Assembly (NCBI GenBank): GCA_042852035.1
Contig: BAAFHK010000003.1
Span: forward strand, 90,001 to 122,000
Direction: 5' to 3'
DNA: 32,000 nt
DNA from: Candidatus Saccharimonadota bacterium
GTDB lineage: Bacteria > Patescibacteriota > Gracilibacteria > BD1-5 > UBA2023
Shown piece by piece: positions 5,017 to 30,297 of the stretch; the stretch's first letter is position 1; each line of letters starts with the position of its first letter. A program made the translations under genes and the position numbers. Under the pieces are notes generated by a model. That model worked only from the letters and a program-made list of their open reading frames with translations, did not search any database and was not told the DNA's origin.

Positions 5017-5745
5017 TTATTCTGCTTTTTTCTTAGCTGGAGCTTTTTTTACTGATTTTTCTGACTTTGCTTCAGTTTCAGTCTTTTCTGCACTATTCTT
5101 TTTAGAGGCAAATGAAACATTCATACTTAATGGCTTTAGTGCCTTGAGTGCCTTGAGAGCTACACGTGCATTGGTAATCATATTTGGAGCTCAATGTTGC
5201 TTTGCGATTACATCTTTAATACCAGAAACTGCAAATATTTTACGAACAGCGCCTCATGCAATTATACCAGTACCAGGATGAGCTGGATGAATATAGAGTG
5301 CTGAAGACTTAAAATTCACTGCAACATCGTGTGGGATAGTACCATTAATAATAGGGAAGGTAATAAGATTCTTCTTAGCATCTCGTATTGCCTTTTCTAC
5401 AGCCGATTGAACTTCACCTGCCTTTCCAGTTCCAAGTCCTATACGACCCTTTCCATCACCAACAACAACCGAAGCACGAAATCGAATTTGTCGACCTCAG
5501 GCTGTTACACGAGTAACGCGATCAACCGAGAGCATTTCCTCTTGAAATTCCTTCTCTTCTTCTCTCATACCATCACGACGAGGTCCTCGTTTGTCGCCTC
5601 GAGGTGGACGTCCACCCTCACGACCACGACCATTATTTCGTGCACTGTTATTACCAGTAGCTCCTGCTTGAGCTGGATTATCTTGGCTTGATCCTTCTAC
5701 TGAAGTAGAAGTCTCTTCGATTTGAGTGTTCTCTGTTTCTGACAT
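5017..5745 (-). CDS. rpsE: 30S ribosomal protein S5, with an Arg/Gly-rich N-terminal extension and a Lys/Ala/Glu-rich C-terminal extension
   Basis: Track ORF 5497-5763 continues through three TGA codons: ...LSVDRVTRVTA[G]GRQIRFRASVVVGDGKGRIGLGTGKA...HPGTGIIA[G]GAVRKIF...AKQH[G]APN...KKAPAKKKAE, ending at TAA 5017. All three TGA codons fall on Gly positions conserved in S5 (GGR, AGG, YGS). I chose the start at MSETEN (5745). ATG 5763 is an alternative start. Confidence 0.9.
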
Positions 5746-8321: not shown

Positions 8322-8367
8322 AAACAGAGAGTTAAAAGTTTTTTATATTCAAATTTCGAATGGGATA

Positions 8368-8736
8368 CTAGACAACTTCAGGAGCAAGAGAGATAATCTT
8401 TTGGTACCCGCGAGCCTTGAGCTCTCGGAATACTGGCCCAAATATACGAGTCCCCTTTGGTTCGAGCTTATCATCAATAATAACACAAGCGTTATCATCT
8501 GAGCGTACGTAAGAACCATCATCACGACGAATTTCTTTTGCTGTACGAACAATTACCGCTTTACAGACCGCCTTCTTCTTAATGTTTCCATTTGGAAGAG
8601 CCTTCTTTACTGAAACAACGATAATGTCACCAACGCTTGCATAACGGCGCTTTGATCCTTTCAAAACTTTAATACAGAGAACTTCTTTTGCTCCAGTATT
8701 ATCTACGACGACGAGTCTTGATTCTGTTTGTATCAT
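8368..8736 (-). CDS. rplN: 50S ribosomal protein L14
   Basis: The intact 122-aa ORF reads [28 protein letters not shown]...[23 protein letters not shown]. Confidence 0.95.
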
Positions 8737-8774
8737 AATGAAAATTTTAATTGTGAATTGGAGGAGGAGAAAAA

Positions 8775-9023
8775 TTATTCAGCAGTTCCACTCTTAATAG
8801 AATCTTCTACAAGAGTCCATCTCTTAAGACGAGAAAGTGGACGAGTCTCAGAAATAGTGACAGTGTCTCCAACTTTTGCGACACCATTTTCATCGTGTGC
8901 ATAAAATTTTCATGAAGACTTATATCTCTTCTGATATTTTGGGTGCGTTTTGTACGTATCGACGGTAACAACGATAGTCTTCTGCATTTTTGTACTGGTA
9001 ACGACACCGGTCTTAGTACGCAT
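8775..9023 (-). CDS. rpsQ: 30S ribosomal protein S17
   Basis: Hand translation gives [37 protein letters not shown][G][35 protein letters not shown]... Track ORF 8807-9007 is in a different, spurious frame. Confidence 0.9.
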
Positions 9024-9041
9024 AGGGGAATTTTTTAGGAA

Positions 9042-9251
9042 TTAGACAGAAAGTGAATTAAGAGCTGTGGAGAGTTGAGCAACAGTGCGTCTTGCCTTAC
9101 GAATAAGGTGAGGCTGTTTAAGTTCTCCAAGAGAGTGTTTCATTGAAAGAGTAAAAAGCTCTTTTTGAGTCGAACGAATTTCATTCATGAGTTCAGTTCT
9201 ATCAAGAGACTTTATGTCTTTCTTCTCTGTTGATTTTTTCGCTTTAGCCAT
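9042..9251 (-). CDS. rpmC: 50S ribosomal protein L29
   Basis: The intact 69-aa helical ORF (...LDRTELMNEIRSTQKELFTLSMKHSLGELKQPHLIRKARRTVAQL) lies in the conserved position between rplP and rpsQ. Confidence 0.9.
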   Translation of the reverse strand: MAKAKKSTEKKDIKSLDRTELMNEIRSTQKELFTLSMKHSLGELKQPHLIRKARRTVAQLSTALNSLSV

Positions 9252-9739: not shown

Positions 9740-10378
9740 TTATTTCTTGAACACGTCACCTTTGTAGATCCAGACCTTAAGACCGATAGTTCCAGCTGGA
9801 GTTTCAGCTCGTTCATAAGCAAAGTCAACATCAGCACGAATCGTTTGTGTTGGAATTGAACCATCCTTATATGTTTCTCGACGAGCGATTTCAGCTCCAT
9901 TGAGACGTCCACCGAGTTTTACCTTAATTCCGAGACCACCTTTTTCAATAGTTTTTGCGATAGCATTCTTGATTACTCTTCGATATGGCATCTTTTTTTC
10001 AATCTGGCGAGCAATAGAATCAGCAACGAGAGTAGCTGAGAGCTCAGGTTTCTTTACTTCTTTAACTTCAAGCTGAAACACATATCCAGGAAATCGTTTT
10101 ACAAGATTTTCTTTAAGTGCATTTACATTTTCGTCATTCGTACCGAGTATAACTGCAGGACGAGAAGTTGAAATAGTAATAGAAACGGTACTGTTTCCTG
10201 TATGCCCTATAAAAATATTGGCAACTGGAAGGTTCTTGAAGTGCTTCGTTACGAGAGTTCTGATAGCAACATCTTGAGCAGTATGTTCTGCGTAGTTCTT
10301 CCGATCATAGTAACCGGTAGTACGCCAAGTCTTAATGTATCAGATTCGAAATGCAAGAGGTGAAACTTTGTGTCACAT
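9740..10378 (-). CDS. rpsC: 30S ribosomal protein S3
   Basis: Track ORF 9740-10081 is the C-terminal half. The N-terminus reads M[G]HKVSPLAFRI[G]YIKTWRTT..., so codon 2 (10373-10375) is a TGA at the invariant Gly of the MGQK start of S3. Confidence 0.92.
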
Positions 10379-11072: not shown

Positions 11073-11915
11073 TTAGCCTTGGAGCTTTCCTGTGCGAGTT
11101 CTGAGAATCCAACGGTCAGTTGATTTTCTTGATCGAGTCTTTACTCCACGAGCAAGTTTTCCTTTTGGTGTTTTTGGACCCTTTCTTTGTCAGACTGATT
11201 GATGTCCTTCACCTCAACCATGTGGATGATCTACTGGGTTCATTGATGAACCAAGAACGGTAGGACGACGACCCATCCAACGTGAACGCCCTGCCTTACC
11301 TATAGTAATTTGATTCCAATCAGCATTTGAGACAACGCCGAGAGTTGCAAAACATTTCTTATGAACAATTCTAATTTCTCCACTTGGCATTTTTACTTGT
11401 GTATACTCACCTTCTTGGGAGATTACCTGAGCACTTGATCCAGCTGATCGGATAGTAGAAGCTCCTTGTCCGACAATCATTTCAACGTTGTAAACACTCA
11501 TTCCAGTTGGGATATTTCCGATTTCCATTCTATTTCCAGCAACTGGTTTTGCAGTAACTGAAGTTACAATTTCATCACCAACTTTCATCTCAGAATGAGC
11601 AAGAACATATCGACGTTCTCCATCTCGATAACATACAAGTGCAATAAATGCGCTGCGATATGGGTCGTATTCGATAGTTTCTACTTTTGCTGGAACATCA
11701 AGTTTATCAAAAGCAAAGTCTACAATACGGTAAAGTTTCTTATGACCCGCACCTTGATGACGAACCGCAAGACGACCGAGATTATTTCGACCAGCAGACT
11801 CTTTTATGTAGCGAGTAAGTGGCTTATATGGTGTATTTGTCGTAAGCTCTTCGTAGGTAAGACTGGTCATGAAACGACGAGATGGGGTGGTTGGTTTATA
11901 CTTTTTGATTCACAT
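11073..11915 (-). CDS. rplB: 50S ribosomal protein L2
   Basis: Track ORF 11214-11870 extends both ways: M[G]IKKYKPTTPSRRFMTSL... at the N-terminus and ...SSMNPVDHPHG[G]GEGHQSV[G]QRKGPKTPKGK... down to TAA 11073. The TGA at 11214-11216 lies inside the universally conserved HPHGGGEG motif. Confidence 0.93.
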
Positions 11916-22703: not shown

Positions 22704-22736
22704 TCTTACTTGACTCTTACCGGAATGTGATAGAGT
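22704..22736 (+). promoter_or_regulatory. Box A: direct-repeat operator plus -10 (TCTTAC-N5-TCTTAC-N10-TAGAGT) upstream of the adaptor/ABC operon
   Basis: The site reads TCTTACttgacTCTTACcggaatgtgaTAGAGT and ends 22 nt before ATG 22759. Three other sites share the same architecture (26886, 27392, 28182). Confidence 0.55.
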
Positions 22737-22758
22737 AGAACCATCATAAAAAAACACT

Positions 22759-24975
22759 ATGCGTAAATCACGTTGGGCTATCGCATGAGCGATATTGCTC
22801 ATATGAGGTGGGGGATACTGGTACTATGCTTCGAAAAAGACAACAACCAACCAGAGTGGAACACAAGTCGCTATAGTCAGTCGTGGAAGTATTTCAACTA
22901 CCGTAAAAACAACTGGAAAAATATCACCCGTACAAACAAGCGTCCTTTCTTTTACACGACAGGGCACTGTAACAAAGATAAATAAAAAAATTGGTGAAAA
23001 TATTAAAGCGGGCGATGTTATTGCTGAGGTAGATGCGACTGATGCTTACATGGACATCAAAAGCGCACAGATATCCCTAGATAATGCCAATAACAACTAC
23101 ACTAAACTTTTTGATAGCGCAACAGAATGAGACAAAACTAAGGCAAAAAATACCCTCGAGGAGAGTCGCAATACTCTTAAACTTCTTGAGGCTGAATATG
23201 AGAATTTTCTAGTGTCACAAAAGAATGCAATTATTGAAAATGAACTACAAATTTCCCTCCTCGATGAAAAAATGAAGCTGGCTGAAAGCGATTTGGAATA
23301 TACAAGAAAAAATCTTGATACCACCAATGATATCTCGAATCTTGAGCGAGATATTGCAAACTCCTATATTTCTATAGAGGAAGTTGCTCGATTTTTTCCG
23401 ACTACATTTTCGAGTATTAAAAACCTTACCTACATCGACAATAAATCGGCTGAACGTTATGGCGATTTCGGAAGTAAAAATAGCTATCAAAAAGTTCAGA
23501 TGGAGAAACTTACTCTAAGTATCTCAGGGAGTCTTGCAAGTTTCGAGAAAAATCTTTCTTTGCTGAGAACGAAAGAAACACATTGACTCGATGAAGTTCT
23601 CGCTCTTCTTACGACGAGTAGAAGTTTACTTCAAGATATGAATACGCTGTCGGCTCAGGCTGTTGAAACCTATGACAATACCCCCACTGGTATACCATTT
23701 TCTGACACCGATATAGATGATGCTCAAAGCGAACTTCGCACCCTCTGATCGAGCATCTCTACAAAATTATCATCCCTTAATTCTACCTATACCACTCTCA
23801 AAAACTATTGATCAGATGAAATAGAATCCCTTTCCAATAAAAACACCATCGCAAGCAAAGAACAATCTCTTCAGAGTGCAAAAAATGAATTAGCAAAAGC
23901 AAAAAGAAGTTTGGAAGCCCTAAAATCCTCTCAAAATACAGATCGTATCTCAAAACAGAATGAAATAACTCGAGCAAGAAATACTGTTACTTCAAATGAG
24001 CTTACTTACAATGAACTAATGAATGGACCTACTTCTGTAGACCAAAAAAGTGCAAGAAACAATATCGCAAGTGCGAATATATCTCTCTCTAAGGCATATC
24101 TCTCACTTAAAGATTATCAAATCGTTGCTCCATTTGATGGGATTGTGAATGATATTCCTTGGAAAATCGGAGACACATCTACAACCAATGAATGAATACT
24201 CATTGAAAACAAAAATGCCTATGAGATATCTCTTCTTCTCGATCAAATTGATATCGTAAAAGTTACAGCATGAATGAATGCAAAAATTACCTTAGATGCA
24301 TTCCCAAGTGAAACATATACAGGAACCATAAGTCGTGTAAGCGCTGTTCCTACTGAAACTTCTGGTGTAGTATCTTATGAAGCAATTGTAGAACTTTCTA
24401 TACCGAGAAATGATGTTTACTCAAAAATGAGCACCACCGTGGAAATAATTCTTACTCAAAAAGATAATATTCCCACTCTTCCATCTTCGGCAATTACAAC
24501 GTCTTGAGGGAAGTCCTATGTAAATAAAGTTACTGATATGGAGTCACTTCGCGGAACCATGATGAATGGCTCACAAAGTGGAAGTGGAAGAATGCGGCCC
24601 GAAGGATTTTCTGGAGTAACGAGATTTGGAAGTGGAAAAACCGTTTCATGAGAAAAAAATGTGTGAGCCCCTGAATCAAAGACTCTCACATGAATGAATA
24701 TATCTTGAAGTGGAAATTTAAGAAATCGTAGTTCCTCACGATCAGATACTATTAATATTGGAACCGTAACAATTCCAACCGAAAAAATCGAGGTAACTCT
24801 CGGAGTAACCAATGGTGAGAAAACAGAAATTCTCTCATGACTTTCTCTCTGAGATGCAGTAGTTCTCCCAACAACCACTTCAACATCTAAAAGTGCCAGT
24901 TCAAGCACCAAAAGTAGTACCTCTACTACTCGTTCACAATGAGGACTTGGCGCCTGAGGACCACCACCATTCTAA
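22759..24975 (+). CDS. HlyD/MacA-family periplasmic adaptor (membrane fusion protein), unusually long at 738 aa
   Basis: Hand translation with about 20 TGA=Gly codons gives MRKSRWAIA[G]AILLI[G]GGGYWYY (membrane anchor), ...VSRGSISTTVKTTGKISPVQTSVLSF...GTVTKINKKIGENIKAGDVIAEVD (lipoyl half), then about 360 aa of helical sequence. It continues ...YQIVAPFDGIVNDI (second lipoyl half), a beta-barrel region, ...EILS[G]LSL[G]DAVVL, and a Ser/Thr/Gly tail ending at TAA 24973-24975. Confidence 0.85.
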
Positions 24976-24981
24976 AATCTT

Positions 24982-25650
24982 ATGCTCGAACTCAAAAACA
25001 TAACTAAATATTTTGATCTCTGAGATTCAAAGATACAAATACTTAAATGAATCAATCTAACTATCACTGATGGTGAATTCGTTGCAATCATGTGACCATC
25101 TGGAAGCGGGAAATCTACTCTCATGAATATTATCTGACTCCTCGATAAGCCCACTACTGGTACCTATCTTCTTGATGGAAGGAATACGCTCAACCTCTCT
25201 GATAACGAAGAGGCAGAATTTCGCGGAAAAAAAATTGGTTTCATCTTCCAGGGATACAACCTCATTCCCCGGCTTACTGCCCTCGAACAAGTTATGCTTC
25301 CTCTTGATTATCAATGAATAGGGGCAAAAGAAAAAGAACAACTCGCCAAGCATGCTCTCGATCGTATGTGACTTTCAGAAAAATATTACAGCATACCAAC
25401 AAAGCTCTCATGAGGTCAACAACAACGTGTAGCAATAGCTCGAGCTATCGTAACTTCACCTTCTGTTCTTCTCGCTGATGAACCCACAGGCGCTCTCGAC
25501 TCAAAAACTGGAAAAGAAGTTCTCGATATTTTTGAGTCCCTAAATAGGGAAGGTCGAACCGTTATACTTATTACGCATGACCCAACTGTAGGTGCACGAG
25601 CAAAGCGCGTGATTAAGCTTTTCGATGGAAATATAGAAACTGACAATTAA
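24982..25650 (+). CDS. ABC transporter ATP-binding protein, MacB/LolD type
   Basis: The sequence reads [11 protein letters not shown]...GEFVAIM[G][13 protein letters not shown][G]LLD...[10 protein letters not shown]...LS[G][11 protein letters not shown]...[11 protein letters not shown]...ITHD. The Walker A Gly (25093-25095) and the signature-motif Gly (25411-25413) are both encoded by TGA. Confidence 0.92.
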
Positions 25651-25659
25651 CTGATTATT

Positions 25660-26877
25660 ATGCAACTTACACGCATCCTCAGCCATGCATTTCGTAATAT
25701 GAGAGCCAATAAGCTCCGAGCTGGACTTTCATCCCTTGGGATTATAATTGGGGTATTTTCTGTCGTAGTACTTCTAGCAGTTGGGCAAGGAGCTACAAAA
25801 AGTATCGTTGATCGCGTCTCTTCGCTCTGAACGAATCTTCTTACAGTAAGACCATGAAGTCAGAATTCTTGAGATGTTCGCAGACAATGATGAGGAAATC
25901 AGAAAGTATTTACCCTAGAACATATTGATGTTATTAAAAATATTGACCATGTATCGTGAGTCTCTCCGATAGTGAACACCTCTAAACAAGTTATCTATGA
26001 AAACGCAAACTCAACTGTTACAATTTATGGTGTAGCACCCCAGTATGAAACAATTAACAATACCCCGGTTACAAACGGGACATTCATTACCGAAAATGCT
26101 TATAATAATCGAGAAAAGGTTGCTGTTATAGGCCCTACCGTAGTTACAAATCTCTTTAGTGGTACAGATCCTATATGAAAAACTATTCGTGTTTGAAATG
26201 TTCTTTTTACTGTGGTAGGAATCACAAAATCGAAAGGAACGAGCGGTTTTAATGACCCAGATAATGCTCTCTATGTTCCTCTTACTACCGCTCAAATCTC
26301 ACTTCTCGGATCAAATTATCTTTCAACCATCAATGTTCAAATCGATAGTGAATCGAATATGGATAGTGCAAAGGAAGCTATCAATACAGCTCTTCTTGGT
26401 GCACTAAAAATTACCGATACCTCAAAGGCAAATTTCACAATATCAAGCCAAGCTGATACTCTTGATACACTCTCAAGCATTACGACAACACTCAAGACAT
26501 TTCTTTGAGGAATAGCCGCTATTTCTCTGATAGTATGAGGAATCTGAGTCATGAATATTCTTTTAGTTACTGTTTCAGAACGGACGAAAGAAATTGGAAT
26601 CAGAAAGGCCATAGGAGCAAAAAATCGAGATATTATTGAGCAATTTCTTGTGGAATCGGTTCTCCTTACCGTTATGGGATGATTTATTGGGATTATTCTT
26701 TCATTTGGAATCGTGAAAATCATCACCCTCGTAACTACAGCAATTACTCCAGTTATTACGAGCTCTCAGATTCTTCTTGCTCTATCATTTTCTATAGGAA
26801 CTGGACTTTTTTTTGGGATTTTTCCAGCATACAAGGCAGCAAAAATGCGACCAATAGATGCACTCAGAAGTGAATAG
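25660..26877 (+). CDS. ABC transporter permease, MacB/FtsX type
   Basis: The sequence reads [36 protein letters not shown]... followed by a large extracytoplasmic domain. It then continues ...TFL[G]GIAAISLIV[G]GI[G][29 protein letters not shown]...[18 protein letters not shown] and ends at TAG 26875-26877. Confidence 0.9.
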
Positions 26878-26885
26878 TATTTTTC

Positions 26886-26918
26886 TCTTACTTTAAACTT
26901 ACTCAAATTCGATAAGCT
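26886..26918 (+). promoter_or_regulatory. Box D: direct-repeat operator plus -10 (TCTTAC-N5-ACTTAC-N10-TAAGCT) upstream of the lipoprotein gene
   Basis: The site reads TCTTACtttaaACTTACtcaaattcgaTAAGCT. It starts 9 nt after the permease stop and ends 21 nt before ATG 26940. Confidence 0.5.
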
Positions 26919-26939
26919 GGTATTACCTTAATAATTAAT

Positions 26940-27368
26940 ATGCTTATGAAAAATACAAATTTTTCCCCAATACTTCTCTTCGTTCTCTCATCTATAATTC
27001 TCACTTCTTGTACAGGCACTGGAAGTAATACCATAGGAACAAGCAATACAACCCCTTCAAATACTTCTAGCACATCGAACTCCTCTTCGTCTTCAAGTAC
27101 AAAAAAAACCATAAGCTACCGCACTGATCATGGAAAACACTCAGTAAATGTAACCTTTGATATATCGACAACAATTGACGGAACTATTACTGGAGTAAAA
27201 GCGAATATGAACAGTGGTGATCATGAAAGCGCTGAATATATTGCTCGATTCAATAATGCTGCTACCAAAAAAATTGTTGGCCAAAAAATTTCTTCACTCT
27301 CTCTCTCAAGTGTTGGTGGAGCAAGTGATACAACAGATGCATTCCTTAGTGTCATACCTTCAATCTAA
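26940..27368 (+). CDS. Lipoprotein (142 aa) with a Ser/Thr-rich linker and a possible FMN_bind-like C-terminal domain
   Basis: The intact ORF begins MLMKNTNFSPILLFVLSSIILTS-C (signal peptide plus lipobox) and is followed by TGTGSNTIGTSNTTPSNTSSTSNSSSSSS. It ends ...IVGQKISSLSLSSVGGASDTTDAFLSVI, which resembles the SGA[ST] end of FMN-binding domains. Confidence 0.7.
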   Translation: MLMKNTNFSPILLFVLSSIILTSCTGTGSNTIGTSNTTPSNTSSTSNSSSSSSTKKTISYRTDHGKHSVNVTFDISTTIDGTITGVKANMNSGDHESAEYIARFNNAATKKIVGQKISSLSLSSVGGASDTTDAFLSVIPSI

Positions 27369-27391
27369 AATCCCTCTCTTCGAGGGATTTT
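27367..27391 (+). terminator. Rho-independent terminator after the lipoprotein gene
   Basis: The RNA is AAAAUCCCUC-UCUUC-GAGGGAUUUU, overlapping the TAA stop. The T-tract is short. Confidence 0.55.
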
Positions 27392-27424
27392 CCTTACCCC
27401 TCTCTTACGAAGAAATCTTATAAT
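27392..27424 (+). promoter_or_regulatory. Box B: direct-repeat operator plus -10 (CCTTAC-N5-TCTTAC-N10-TATAAT) upstream of the secreted repeat protein gene
   Basis: The site reads CCTTACccctcTCTTACgaagaaatctTATAAT and directly follows the terminator. The predicted leader to ATG 27536 is about 105 nt. Confidence 0.5.
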
Positions 27425-27535
27425 TGTTTATGTAATCTCGATATCTCACTGACGGAAGGAACAATATACTATCGTTCATATCTTCCCGAGAGATCTCTAC
27501 GGATTACGGGATTTTATTACTTAACTTATAATCAT

Positions 27536-28111
27536 ATGAATACAAAAATCCTTGTTCCCGCCGTCCTCGTCACAGCACTTACTGTCGCAGTAGCAGGAAC
27601 ATTCGCCGCCACTGGTTCAAATTCTTCTAATTGAAATAGTTCAGTTCCTGGACAAATTTCTGAAAATGGTTGAGAAAGAATGGGGTGACATAGAGGTGGA
27701 CCAATGGGAGGTCCGATGAACGAACTTTCCGATGCAGAAAAGACATCCCTTGAGTCTATGACCAATACTGAAAAACAAGCCTTTTTTCAAAAAAAACGAA
27801 CTGAAGCTGAAGCAAAGCGAAGCGCTCATGAAGCAGTCATCGATAAGCTTCTTGCAGGTACAGCACTCACGACTGACGAAGAATCACTAAGGCAGGATAT
27901 AATCAAAGAAAGGGCTGAGATGAAAACAAAACGCGCTGAGATGGAAGCAAAGCGTACACAATTTGAGGCAATTCTGGAAAAACAAAAGGCAGGAACTACA
28001 CTTACTCAAGACGAGCAGAAAATTTTAGATGATATGCCAAAAATGCAATGACCTGGTTGAAGAGGCGGTCATATGAAGTGAGAAACGGATACAACCTCAT
28101 CTGCTGAGTAA
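27536..28111 (+). CDS. Secreted helical repeat protein (191 aa), function unknown
   Basis: Track ORF 27704-28051 extends both ways through TGA codons. The N-terminus is MNTKILVPAVLVTALTVAVAGTFA (signal peptide), followed by a Gly-rich stretch with several TGA codons. Two related repeats follow: KRSAHEAVIDKLLAGTALTTDEESLRQDII and KRTQFEAILEKQKAGTTLTQDEQKILDDM. Confidence 0.65.
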
Positions 28112-28148
28112 GTACTCAGTCTCAGGAAAAACGGAAGAAATATATAGG

Positions 28149-28177
28149 AAAATCCCACAATCTTGTGGGATTTTTAT
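28149..28177 (+). terminator. Rho-independent terminator after the secreted repeat protein gene
   Basis: The RNA is AAAAUCCCACA-AUCU-UGUGGGAUUUU followed by UAUUUCUUC. Confidence 0.7.
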
Positions 28178-28181
28178 TTCT

Positions 28182-28214
28182 TCTTACTCGGCTCTTACAA
28201 ATTCAGCGTACAAT
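28182..28214 (+). promoter_or_regulatory. Box C: direct-repeat operator plus -10 (TCTTAC-N5-TCTTAC-N10-TACAAT) upstream of the small ORF / response regulator / kinase operon
   Basis: The site reads TCTTACtcggcTCTTACaaattcagcgTACAAT. The -10 ends 6 nt before ATG 28221, so the predicted transcription start coincides with that ATG. Confidence 0.55.
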
Positions 28215-28220
28215 AATATC

Positions 28221-28364
28221 ATGAAGAAAATCATACTTCTCATGTTTATAGGATTTCTCTCGATCATCTCTCAAGAAGTTTTTCTAACCGATTGACTCGA
28301 TGATGAAACCTCTGAAATCCAGGTTTATAAAAGCCGAATTGAATCTTTCCAGTTTGAACTATAA
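28221..28364 (+). CDS. Small ORF (47 aa) with a signal-peptide-like N-terminus, possibly leaderless
   Basis: The sequence is MKKIILLMFIGFLSIISQEVFLTD[G]LDDETSEIQVYKSRIESFQFEL with one TGA, ending at TAA 28362-28364, 22 nt before the response regulator ATG. Confidence 0.3.
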
Positions 28365-28386: not shown

Positions 28387-29055
28387 ATGAATACCCTTCT
28401 TATCGAAGATAATATTGCTCTCGCTCAAACCGTCACACGCTATCTTGCAACTCAAAATATAACCTGCACCCTTCGAACCGATGGGAAAGAAGGACTTATG
28501 GAAGCAATGAATAATAACTTCGATGTTATTATTCTTGATATCGAGCTTCCGAATATGGATGGGATAGAAATCTGTCGAAGGCTTCGAAATGAATGAAAAA
28601 ATACTCCAATTATCATGCTTACCTCACGTGGTACGCACGATGATATTGTAAGTGGACTTGATTATGGGGCTGATGACTATCTCTCAAAACCTGCTGATTA
28701 TCGAGAGTTAGTGGCTCGAATTCGGGCACTCAGCAGAAGAAATTTTACTGAAAAAAGCACCGAAATGATTCGTATTGGAAGCCTTGAAATCAATCAAACT
28801 CTTCACCAAGTAAGATGGAATGGTAATGAGGTTGAACTCTCAAAACGTGAATTCGAACTTCTTTTGTACTTTGCACAAAATGGAGATAAGATTATTACAA
28901 AAAATGAGCTGGCAGAGAAAGTATGGGGAATTTATGACGTATGGGAAGATGGAAAAGTTGTAGAAGTTTATATCGGATATCTCCGAAAAAAAATAAATAA
29001 AAATATTATTGAAACTCAAAAATGATTCTGATATCGACTAAACTGTTGAGAATAA
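28387..29055 (+). CDS. OmpR/PhoB-family response regulator (receiver plus winged-helix DNA-binding domain)
   Basis: Track ORFs 28387-28596 and 28615-29025 join through TGA. The sequence reads MNTLLIEDN...DVIILDIELPNMDG...MLTSRG...GADDYLSKP...LSKREFELLLYF...VEVYIGYLRKKI...IETQK[G]F[G]YRLNC[G]E. The C-terminal G-x-G-Y-R-L motif uses TGA twice. Confidence 0.92.
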
Positions 29056-29109: not shown

Positions 29110-30297
29110 ATGAAAACGTCATTAATACATACGGAACGAAAACTTATCGCTATATTTCTTGGATGAGCATTTTTATTTCTTCTTTTATTTGAAGGCTTTT
29201 TTCTCGTATCTCGGTTCATCTTTGAAGAAAAAATGTCTCGAACTGGATTCACCAATGAGGTAACTCGAATAGAGAATCATGCTCCGGATTCACCAAGAAA
29301 ATCAAGGGATTTTTGACCAAAGATTGGTATGTCGGTATTTTCAATTGATAGAAGTGGTGCCGTATTTCAAGATCGTTGAATAGAAAATCCACTCGTCGAT
29401 ATCGAAGAAATAACTTGAGAATTTCTCAATGAACTTGAGGTAGGGGTTGTCACAAAAAAAGACGATTTACTCATCTATAAAAGAATTCGCCCAGAAAATC
29501 CCGAACTCTATCAGGTTTTTATAAGAAGATCGGGGTATCCCCTTGAAGATCTTTTGCGAGATATTCTTCGCTTTCTTATTTTAGATATACTGATTATTGT
29601 CCCATTTTATTTTATGGGAAGATACTTTGTACGGAAAACTCTTGAGCCTGTTGCAGAAAATATTGATATAATGTCTCACTTTATTCATGATGCCTGACAT
29701 GAACTTAAAACGCCACTTGCTATCGTTTCATGAAACCTTCAGATTCTTCGGGAAACTAAACATATAGAGAAGTGACTCGTTGAAGAAAGCATTGACACTA
29801 TTCACTCAATGTCAGATTCTCTAGATGGGTTACTGGAACTCTCGAGTACTATGAGTTGAGAAAAAATCGATAAAATTCATCTTCTAGAAGCATTCAATGC
29901 CGAATTTGAAAAAGAAAAAACAAGAATTGAAGAAAAGAAAATAGTCGTAAATATTCATATTGAACCAAAATCAAGTATTGATATGGATCGAAAACATTTC
30001 TCTTTGCTTTTCGGAAACCTTATTAGAAATGCTATCACCTACAATAAAAGTGGAGGAACGATTGATATTAATGAAAAGGATGGAATGATATCAATTACTG
30101 ATACTGGTATCGGAATCGATGAAAAGCATATAAAAAACATTTGGGAAAGATTCTATAGAGTTGAAAGAACTGGTAAGAATCCTGGAACTGGGATAGGTCT
30201 CTCGATAGTAGAAAAAATAATACATCACTATGGTTGGGAAATACGTGTAACATCTAAAGTAAATCAGTGAACTACTTTTAACATAAAAATAAAATAG
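29110..30297 (+). CDS. Sensor histidine kinase (two transmembrane segments, HisKA and HATPase_c domains)
   Basis: Hand translation gives MKTSLIHTERKLIAIFL[G]GAFLFLLLF..., a loop of about 120 aa, and a second transmembrane segment LRFLILDILIIVPFYF. The H-box is FIHDA[G]HELKTPLAIVS[G]N (TGA at 29695-29697), the N-box is LIRNAITYN, and the G-boxes are DTGIGI and GTGIGLSIV. It ends at TAG 30295-30297. Confidence 0.9.

Follow-up and report, generated by a model that had tools for sequence, protein, structure and literature searches.

The 32-kilobase (kb) stretch of contig BAAFHK010000003.1 analysed here (positions 90,001 to 122,000; henceforth the window) carries four copies of a tandem-repeat box close to the genes for a response regulator of the OmpR/PhoB family and a sensor histidine kinase. 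Judged from sequence comparisons, these boxes are very probably the sites through which the neighbouring regulator switches on a pump, two exported proteins and itself. We assign a probability of about 0.8 to this explanation as a whole, that is, dimer binding and activation of all four units. In kind, the regulator and the boxes would form an ordinary OmpR/PhoB-type autoregulated module. Because the stretches examined comprised the window and the 10-kb flanks of relatives, "local regulon" means here that no other site lies within these stretches.

All four sites are intergenic, lie on the plus strand and share the form (T/C)CTTAC-N5-(T/A)CTTAC-N10-TAnnnT (Table 1). An initial annotation of the window had proposed four sites of identical geometry, with two hexamer direct repeats at an 11-base-pair (bp) period, no conserved −35 motif and no further tandem CTTAC pair of this geometry in the 32 kb; counting upheld each of these points, and all four positions were recovered. 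CTTAC-N6-CTTAC occurs exactly four times in the window against 0.03 occurrences expected from dinucleotide-preserving shuffles, and none of 100 shuffles reached four. Allowing one mismatch added just two matches, both within genes, at 11842 (minus strand) and 22446; the latter is the near-match that the annotation had set aside. Among CTTAC pairs up to 40 nucleotides (nt) apart in the window, the 11-nt spacing alone is enriched, and the same period is found in 27 sites of related genomes. Spacers and flanks of the window sites are unrelated to one another; the half-sites are invariant. When a matrix was built from 17 foreign-genome sites only and applied to the window, sites A, B, C and D came out as the top four matches (24.9, 22.8, 21.3 and 20.3 bits, respectively). 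The fifth match, at 11.2 bits, is at the level of shuffled sequence, since shuffle maxima average 12.1 bits. A matrix check of the kind that the annotation had proposed for whole genomes, run on the window, thus placed the four intergenic sites first.

The downstream part of the motif is equally regular. The distance to the TAnnnT hexamer is N10, rarely N11, across all sites of the window and the relatives. A −35 element sought at 16–18 nt spacing gave a best match to TTGACA of 1–2 positions out of 6 at the four window sites; over all sites the best match is usually 1–3 and at most 4. An extended −10 motif (TGn) precedes TAnnnT in 12 of 23 CTTAC-type sites; these include site A and, outside the window, all secreted-protein promoters examined. 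This points to −35-independent recognition as a common feature of promoters in the lineage. The hairpins and the 8-nt gap listed in Table 1 bear out the earlier observation that sites B and C follow terminators and site D the permease stop codon.

Scans with the regulator protein yielded few close relatives, and all those with enough sequence (loci are given L numbers below) carry the box. The check whether boxes precede orthologous operons, which the annotation had suggested, showed the same box in the same geometry before the same units in eight to nine related genomes, rearranged loci included, although their regulators are just 66–85% identical. In the closest relative, L081 (regulator 85% identical), the order is permease, box, lipoprotein, box, secreted protein, box, regulator and kinase. 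L161 and L162, which hold the full locus of the same species, have an extra box before the adaptor gene, at 5034, with the hexamer TAGAGT as in site A. In all three loci the site at the junction corresponding to site D has one mismatch. Boxes were placed in L081/L161/L162 at the four junctions that carry them in the window. Three boxes were found in L163 and two each in L083, L106 and L002. Sites orthologous to site B are present in L081, L161–L165, L171, L002 and L106, and sites orthologous to site C precede the regulator gene in L081, L161–L165 and L171. An alignment of 13 sites showed invariant CTTAC cores and an invariant T-A-T of the −10 hexamer, with spacers and flanks nearly information-free, a pattern that reads as a classical footprint. 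By comparison, 2.15 Mb of sequence from 153 unrelated loci recovered in the same scans contain two CTTAC-N6-CTTAC pairs, none of which has TAnnnT at N10.

Rearranged loci separate the box from its surroundings. L164 and L165 have the secreted-protein gene first, then adaptor/ABC/permease and then regulator/kinase, with an exact box before each unit. In L171 the regulator and kinase genes lie 3.7 kb from the pump and secreted-protein genes, with unrelated genes between them; there, exact boxes were found in front of four genes, namely those for the adaptor, an additional secreted protein, the secreted-protein orthologue and the regulator. The box thus goes with the genes and not with the position, and within the approximately 20-kb loci of nine relatives the box-bearing genes are those of the module only. 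No (C/T)TTA(C/A)-type box was found at the pump operons of L169 and L170, which have no regulator within 10 kb; these operons therefore constitute a negative control. As a test for a non-local regulon, a pump operon remote from the regulator was sought in OY970170.1, the closed genome from which L002 comes; the search returned no adaptor homologue from that contig.

Half-site and recognition helix change together. Wherever the C-terminus of the regulator was recovered from a CTTAC genome, the helix is near-identical, K[VI]VEVYIGY[LI]RKK[IM]. In distant relatives the geometry is held while both half-site and helix change. The regulator of L167 has the helix RTVDVHISTLRKKL, and three occurrences of the box TTTAC-N6-(T/A)TTAC-N10-TAnnnT (0.00 expected) precede the genes for regulator, secreted protein and adaptor. 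L168 (24% G+C) combines the helix KTIDVYIGYLRKKL with the box CTTAA-N6-CTTAA-N10-TAnnnT, four matches of which (0.01 expected) precede an adaptor-containing unit, two exported-protein genes and the regulator gene. This co-variation is the best available non-experimental indication that the regulator reads the boxes.

We propose that the kinase (29110–30297) would sense an extracytoplasmic signal and that a head-to-tail dimer of the phosphorylated regulator (28387–29055) would bind each box. Assuming a start 7 nt past the −10 hexamer, the box would span approximately −39 to −23, the usual location of the −35 element. The starts in Table 1 were predicted in the annotation. The bound dimer would replace the −35 contact and recruit sigma-70 RNA polymerase in the manner of PhoB, PmrA and CiaR; it is because the layout matches the promoters of these three regulators that a phosphorylated dimer in place of the −35 is taken to activate all units. 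The YknXYZ/MacAB-type pump operon, the lipoprotein gene, the gene for a secreted LTxxQ-like protein and the regulator/kinase operon would be turned on together, and the box of the last of these would provide positive feedback. The signal is probably envelope, antimicrobial or metal stress.

Table 1. Features of the window relevant to the putative regulon. Promoter assignments and transcription starts are predictions.
Feature	Position	Strand	Details
Site A	22704–22736	+	TCTTAC 22704–22709, TCTTAC 22715–22720, −10 TAGAGT 22731–22736; predicted start ~22743; promoter of adaptor/ABC/permease operon; TG of an extended −10 in the 10-nt spacer
Membrane-fusion adaptor, HlyD/YknX type, 738 amino acids (aa)	22759–24975	+	HlyD_3 7.7e-13; code 25
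ATP-binding cassette (ABC) ATPase, MacB type	24982–25650	+	ABC_tran 5.8e-36
MacB-type permease, 405 aa	25660–26877	+	MacB_PCD 1e-47; single FtsX domain 5.3e-19
Site D	26886–26918	+	TCTTAC 26886–26891, ACTTAC 26897–26902, −10 TAAGCT 26913–26918; predicted start ~26925; internal promoter, lipoprotein gene; 8 nt past permease stop, no terminator between
Lipoprotein, 142 aa, no family assigned	26940–27368	+	lipobox LTSC; 49% identical orthologue in L081
Terminator hairpin	27367–27391	+	10-bp stem and T-run; abuts site B directly
Site B	27392–27424	+	CCTTAC 27392–27397, TCTTAC 27403–27408, −10 TATAAT 27419–27424; predicted start ~27431; promoter of secreted-protein gene
5′ leader of secreted-protein gene, 105 nt	27431–27535	+	conserved GTAAYCTCG ... 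CAYTGACGGAA ... TTCCCGAG; two-tier hairpin
Secreted helical protein, 191 aa	27536–28111	+	LTDAEK/LTxDEQ repeats; Gly/His/Met-rich ends
Terminator hairpin	28148–28181	+	12 pairs (28148–28175) and T-run; directly upstream of site C
Site C	28182–28214	+	TCTTAC 28182–28187, TCTTAC 28193–28198, −10 TACAAT 28209–28214; predicted start ~28221; promoter of small open reading frame, regulator and kinase genes (autoregulation)
Small open reading frame, 47 aa	28221–28364	+	hydrophobic N-terminus (MKKIILLMFIGFLSIISQ...)
OmpR/PhoB-family response regulator, 222 aa	28387–29055	+	recognition helix KVVEVYIGYLRKKI
Sensor histidine kinase	29110–30297	+	HisKA and HATPase_c
Second lipoprotein, 154 aa	30353–30817	+	lipobox LSSC; 55 nt after kinase gene, no box of its own

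The nearest analogues of the boxes are found at CiaR, PmrA and PhoB promoters. Pho boxes are tandem direct repeats of 11-bp period that replace the −35 element 10 bp upstream of a TAN3T/A −10 hexamer (PMC1906773), and PhoB covers −41 to −25 at pstS (PMC10570014), as compared to the predicted −39 to −23 here. E. coli PhoB is of the same regulator family and has the same layout; however, its consensus is CTGTCAT-like rather than CTTAC, and no gene for phosphate uptake or scavenging belongs to the present regulon. The pmra-box consists of two XTTAAY hexamers with 5 nt between them, overlapping the −35 region, and the activation complex is known from cryo-electron microscopy (PMC10570014). As is probable for the module described here, enterobacterial PmrA/BasR belongs to an envelope and antimicrobial-peptide response, and the CTTAA-N6-CTTAA of L168 fits XTTAAY. 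The window half-sites (CTTACN), in contrast, have a C where PmrA needs the second A, and the targets of PmrA are lipopolysaccharide-modifying enzymes.

The third precedent is CiaR, the regulator of the streptococcal CiaRH system. CiaR boxes read TTTAAG-N5-TTTAAG, the −10 hexamer lies ten nt further on, and the box is essential for activation (PMC3091779); hexamer-N5-hexamer followed by 10 nt to the −10 is thus common to both systems. Comparison of the helices alone showed identity at 9 of 13 positions (VVEVYVSKVRKKL in CiaR, VVEVYIGYLRKKI in the window regulator). Firmicutes regulators retrieved in the scan are approximately 40–44% identical to that of the window. The CiaR regulon is small and envelope-related, as the window module probably is, and its strongest promoters drive short terminated RNAs, to be compared with the transcript of about 60 nt predicted in L083 (see below). 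The two systems differ in the half-site, NTTAAG with an invariant final G in CiaR against TCTTAC with a final C in all sites here, as well as in phylum, genetic code and target genes.

The regulator itself has a PF00072 receiver domain (3.6e-29) and a PF00486 Trans_reg_C winged helix (9.9e-20), and matches the DrrD, PrrA, MtrA, RegX3 and BasR structures over its full length, BasR being among the best PDB matches. It scored 175.3 bits against the PhoB equivalog TIGR02154 (cut-off 296.2), 154.7 bits against NF053854, also for PhoB (cut-off 270), and 145 bits against the PmrA equivalog (cut-off 330). Orthology to PhoB, MtrA, CseB, PmrA, BaeR or CpxR was rejected, since the protein reaches no NCBIfam equivalog cut-off. 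A Pho regulon was rejected as well: to the TIGR02154 score are added half-sites of (T/C)CTTAC instead of the CTGTCAT type and the lack of phosphate genes. The initial description of the boxes as "Pho-box-like" therefore stands for the layout (direct repeats, 10 nt to the −10, no −35) but not for the identity of the regulator or its targets.

Several observations weigh against a simple activation circuit. Sites A and D have weak −10 hexamers (TAGAGT and TAAGCT, respectively), and site D, with no terminator after the permease gene, may be redundant. A box that overlaps the −35 region could also repress. L001 and L082 share an identical helix (regulators 66% identical) but have degenerate boxes. 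These boxes (at 8340 and 9923 in L001; at 8344 and at the equivalent regulator-upstream site in L082) keep the right geometry and are conserved between the two contigs: TTTAA-N6-CTTAA-N10-TATAYT precedes a deacetylase gene and CTTAT-N6-TTTAC-N10-TATAAT the regulator gene. The regulator genes of these two contigs have other neighbours, lying downstream of a gene of polysaccharide-deacetylase type, and the background sequence is AT-rich (35% G+C). Finally, the regulator gene of L002 and of L106 lacks a preceding box, and autoregulation is thus not a feature of every genome. On this last point the annotation's inference that the regulator activates all four units, its own operon included, has to be qualified, whereas the conservation in eight to nine genomes, the rearranged loci, the helix co-variation and the boxless unlinked pumps speak in its favour.

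The extended −10 found in half of the related sites fits promoters devoid of a −35 and leaves room for basal, regulator-independent activity or for repression. The same regulator might then act at the same boxes as a repressor or in a dual role, its occupancy of −39 to −23 blocking polymerase, and the extended −10 firing when the regulator is unphosphorylated or absent. That the box overlaps the polymerase footprint and that the 12 sites with TGn would be capable of −35-independent transcription agree with this possibility; yet the lack of a −35 together with a fixed 10-nt distance to the −10 is the signature of activator-dependent promoters of the PhoB, PmrA and CiaR type, and phasing so strict over some 30 promoters would be unneeded for repressor sites. 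Moreover, several sites would make poor promoters unaided, because they combine the absence of TGn with weak −10 hexamers. We consider repression unlikely. It is decidedly more improbable that another winged-helix regulator, encoded elsewhere, binds the boxes and that linkage to the two-component genes is incidental. OmpR-family half-sites of the (C/T)TTA type do serve many regulators, and the connection between these boxes and this regulator comes from comparing sequences. Nevertheless, the regulator/kinase pair is the sole regulator consistently found within 10 kb of the boxes in all genomes examined, the half-site shifts where the helix of this regulator shifts, pump operons lacking the pair are boxless, and the regulator's own promoter is usually boxed.

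The promoter rules of Patescibacteria are essentially unmapped, and a motif at fixed distance from a −10-like hexamer might be a lineage-specific core promoter element, recognized by an alternative sigma factor or belonging to an odd housekeeping promoter. This can be given little credence: just four of the many transcription units in the window have the box, which in the loci of the nine relatives is confined to module genes; a tandem direct repeat phased at 11 bp is the hallmark of a head-to-tail dimer and not of a sigma −35 contact; and the hexamers, at about −39/−34 and −28/−23, both miss the −35 position required by a 16–18 nt spacing. A chance match, or an unselected relic of local promoter duplication, finds an echo in the tandem sites of L002 and L106, which resemble a duplication down to their downstream sequence. 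With 0.03 matches expected per window, half-sites invariant amid unrelated spacers and flanks, and conservation across regulators 66–85% identical and across rearrangements, its likelihood is negligible; the shuffle statistics, the foreign-site matrix and the persistence of the box through rearrangement refute it. Activation by the neighbouring regulator thus remains the explanation that we favour.

Gene assignments in the window depend on the genetic code. TGA codons occupy invariant glycine positions of the ABC ATPase, in the Walker A motif (25087–25119) and in the ABC signature LS*GQQQR (25408–25431), and for this reason the window is read with code 25 (Altimarinota/Gracilibacteria), in which TGA encodes glycine. 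Gene calls with table 11 were rejected: they fragment the open reading frames of nearly every gene in the window and put stops at these invariant glycines. In several related contigs the public gene calls are fragmented or on the wrong strand (e.g., L163, and L171 at 8579–9088), faults that arise because TGA is a sense codon. Once genes were re-called with code 25, each box was seen to precede one transcription unit, and domain searches agreed with the targets that the annotation had named (adaptor/ABC operon, lipoprotein, secreted repeat protein, and small reading frame with regulator and kinase). The first operon encodes an adaptor, a separate ATPase and a permease with MacB_PCD and FtsX domains, the make-up of a tripartite MacB/YknXYZ-type pump; homologues of the adaptor carry PF25990 (Beta-barrel_YknX). 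From its sequence, the kinase has two hydrophobic segments flanking a loop of about 110 aa that would be extracytoplasmic; a HAMP domain was not detected in it in the domain search of the window proteins.

Two small genes flank the regulatory pair. The small reading frame would be translated from a leaderless message, since its ATG coincides with the predicted start at 28221. It is absent from L081 and L161, where the box directly precedes the regulator gene, 20 nt upstream of it in L081. It could encode a small membrane peptide or merely represent 5′ untranslated region (UTR). The second lipoprotein gene is possibly co-transcribed with the kinase gene; L161 and L162 have a 155-aa gene at its position, a likeness of size and position only.

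HHAS10_10960, from a metagenome-assembled genome of Candidatus Altimarinota (Gracilibacteria, Patescibacteria), matches the secreted protein with 100% identity. More than 100 proteins make up the family of the secreted protein, and all members with a source name are from Gracilibacteria-type genomes. The LTDAEK and LTxDEQ repeats are among the invariant features of the family. PF13801 is matched by 9 of 26 homologues (best 3.9e-6), the window protein itself giving E = 0.59, and several homologues are named Spy/CpxP family by the Joint Genome Institute. Its AlphaFold model is a helical hairpin with a core predicted local distance difference test (pLDDT) score above 90. Foldseek comparison of the model with the PDB returned nothing below E = 1, and a PDB profile search with the protein gave no match. 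By hhalign, the LTDAxK motif alone aligned with Spy (probability 6%), and ZraP received no significant support, the Spy and ZraP sequences used being approximate. Resemblance to Spy, CpxP or ZraP is therefore a tentative lead, unconfirmed by these fold and profile searches. The ends of the protein and of its orthologues (residues ~45–60 and 168–180) are rich in Gly, His and Met (GGHRGGPMGGPM; GRGGHMKG), and the metal-binding termini of ZraP are likewise rich in His and Gly. Next to cation diffusion facilitator (CDF) cation-efflux, YknX-like and resistance-nodulation-division (RND) genes in L166 lies the gene of a homologue whose box, TTTAC-N6-CTTAC-N10-TATATT at 9909, has one mismatch. Together, the ends of the protein and this gene context hint at a metal connection.

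The leader of the secreted-protein gene is conserved in sequence and hairpin in L161 (9883–10000), L163 (9898–10000), L164 (9884–10000) and L165 (9909–10000), and twice in L171 (8483–8590 and 9146–9275). Its inner stem varies with complementarity kept (GAAC/GTTC, GAACC/GGTTC, GAGG/CCTC, GAGT/ACTC and GGCA/TGCC), and RNAalifold identified compensatory changes at four pairs. As z-scores for folding, modest values of −0.7 to −3.1 were obtained, and +0.4 in one case. Rfam gave no match for the whole window at gathering score and none for the leader at E up to 1. The leader may represent a cis-regulatory RNA not described before. In L002 (9032–9270) and L106 (883–1117), the secreted-protein gene is preceded by a pair of boxes in tandem, separated by about 150 nt; both copies have TATTCT as −10 hexamer and similar downstream sequence, the upstream one retaining part of the conserved leader (ccacgatcggag), and the arrangement looks like a promoter duplication. 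In L083 (179–285), a box at 179 is followed by a predicted transcript only about 60 nt long, which contains a hairpin at its 5′ end as well as a strong terminator hairpin and U-run (−21.9 kcal/mol, z = −7.3); a second box, at 288, leads to the regulator gene. This short transcript, a single instance, is a candidate regulator-dependent small RNA and recalls the CiaR-dependent small RNAs (csRNAs).

The content of the module resembles an envelope, antimicrobial or metal stress response. In E. coli, OmpR-family systems (BaeSR, CpxAR) that regulate their own expression also induce a small LTxxQ-type protein of the periplasm (spy, cpxP) together with an efflux pump, a functional analogy with the pump, the tentatively LTxxQ-like protein and the probable autoregulation described here. 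The pump there is of the RND type, whereas that of the window is an ABC pump of the MacB/YknXYZ type, and the CpxR box (GTAAA-N5-GTAAA, 10-bp period) differs from the window box. In the BceRS-BceAB modules of Firmicutes, an OmpR-family two-component system adjoins and controls an FtsX-family ABC transporter, as the window system probably does. However, Bce regulators bind an inverted repeat, TNACA-N4-TGTAA (PMC9020739), BceB is a large 10-helix permease without an adaptor, as against a 405-aa MacB-type permease with an HlyD/YknX adaptor, and the window kinase has its predicted extracytoplasmic loop of ~110 aa. A Bce-type module was thus rejected on account of the direct repeat and of a MacB_PCD permease with a single FtsX domain and an adaptor.

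To our knowledge, gene regulation in Patescibacteria (candidate phyla radiation) is almost unexplored; the organisms are largely uncultured, and this lineage is recoded. No prior description of the regulon in Gracilibacteria or Patescibacteria was found in the searchable literature, which is limited in coverage. The mechanism is textbook, and what is new, on good support, is an unusually well-footprinted regulon in a little-studied, recoded phylum. The module might form part of a phylum-wide, CiaRH-like envelope defence in Altimarinota/Gracilibacteria, with a co-evolving half-site code (CTTAC, TTTAC, CTTAA), an as yet undescribed structured 5′-UTR element common to the regulated secreted-protein genes and, in some genomes, regulator-dependent small RNAs; we hold this to be possible, though doubtful. 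If true, a code-25 lineage of Patescibacteria would have its first defined transcriptional regulon, one that includes a post-transcriptional layer. The locus offers a predicted operator, four predicted promoters with their starts, and a cognate regulator and kinase, and the half-site and helix variants across genomes are a natural series for studying DNA specificity in the OmpR family. Its value lies in being a clean, testable entry point and not a new principle. The data suggest that this phylum follows sigma-70 promoter rules and uses class II style activation, and an inducible response combining a pump with secreted proteins may matter for an episymbiotic or predatory lifestyle.

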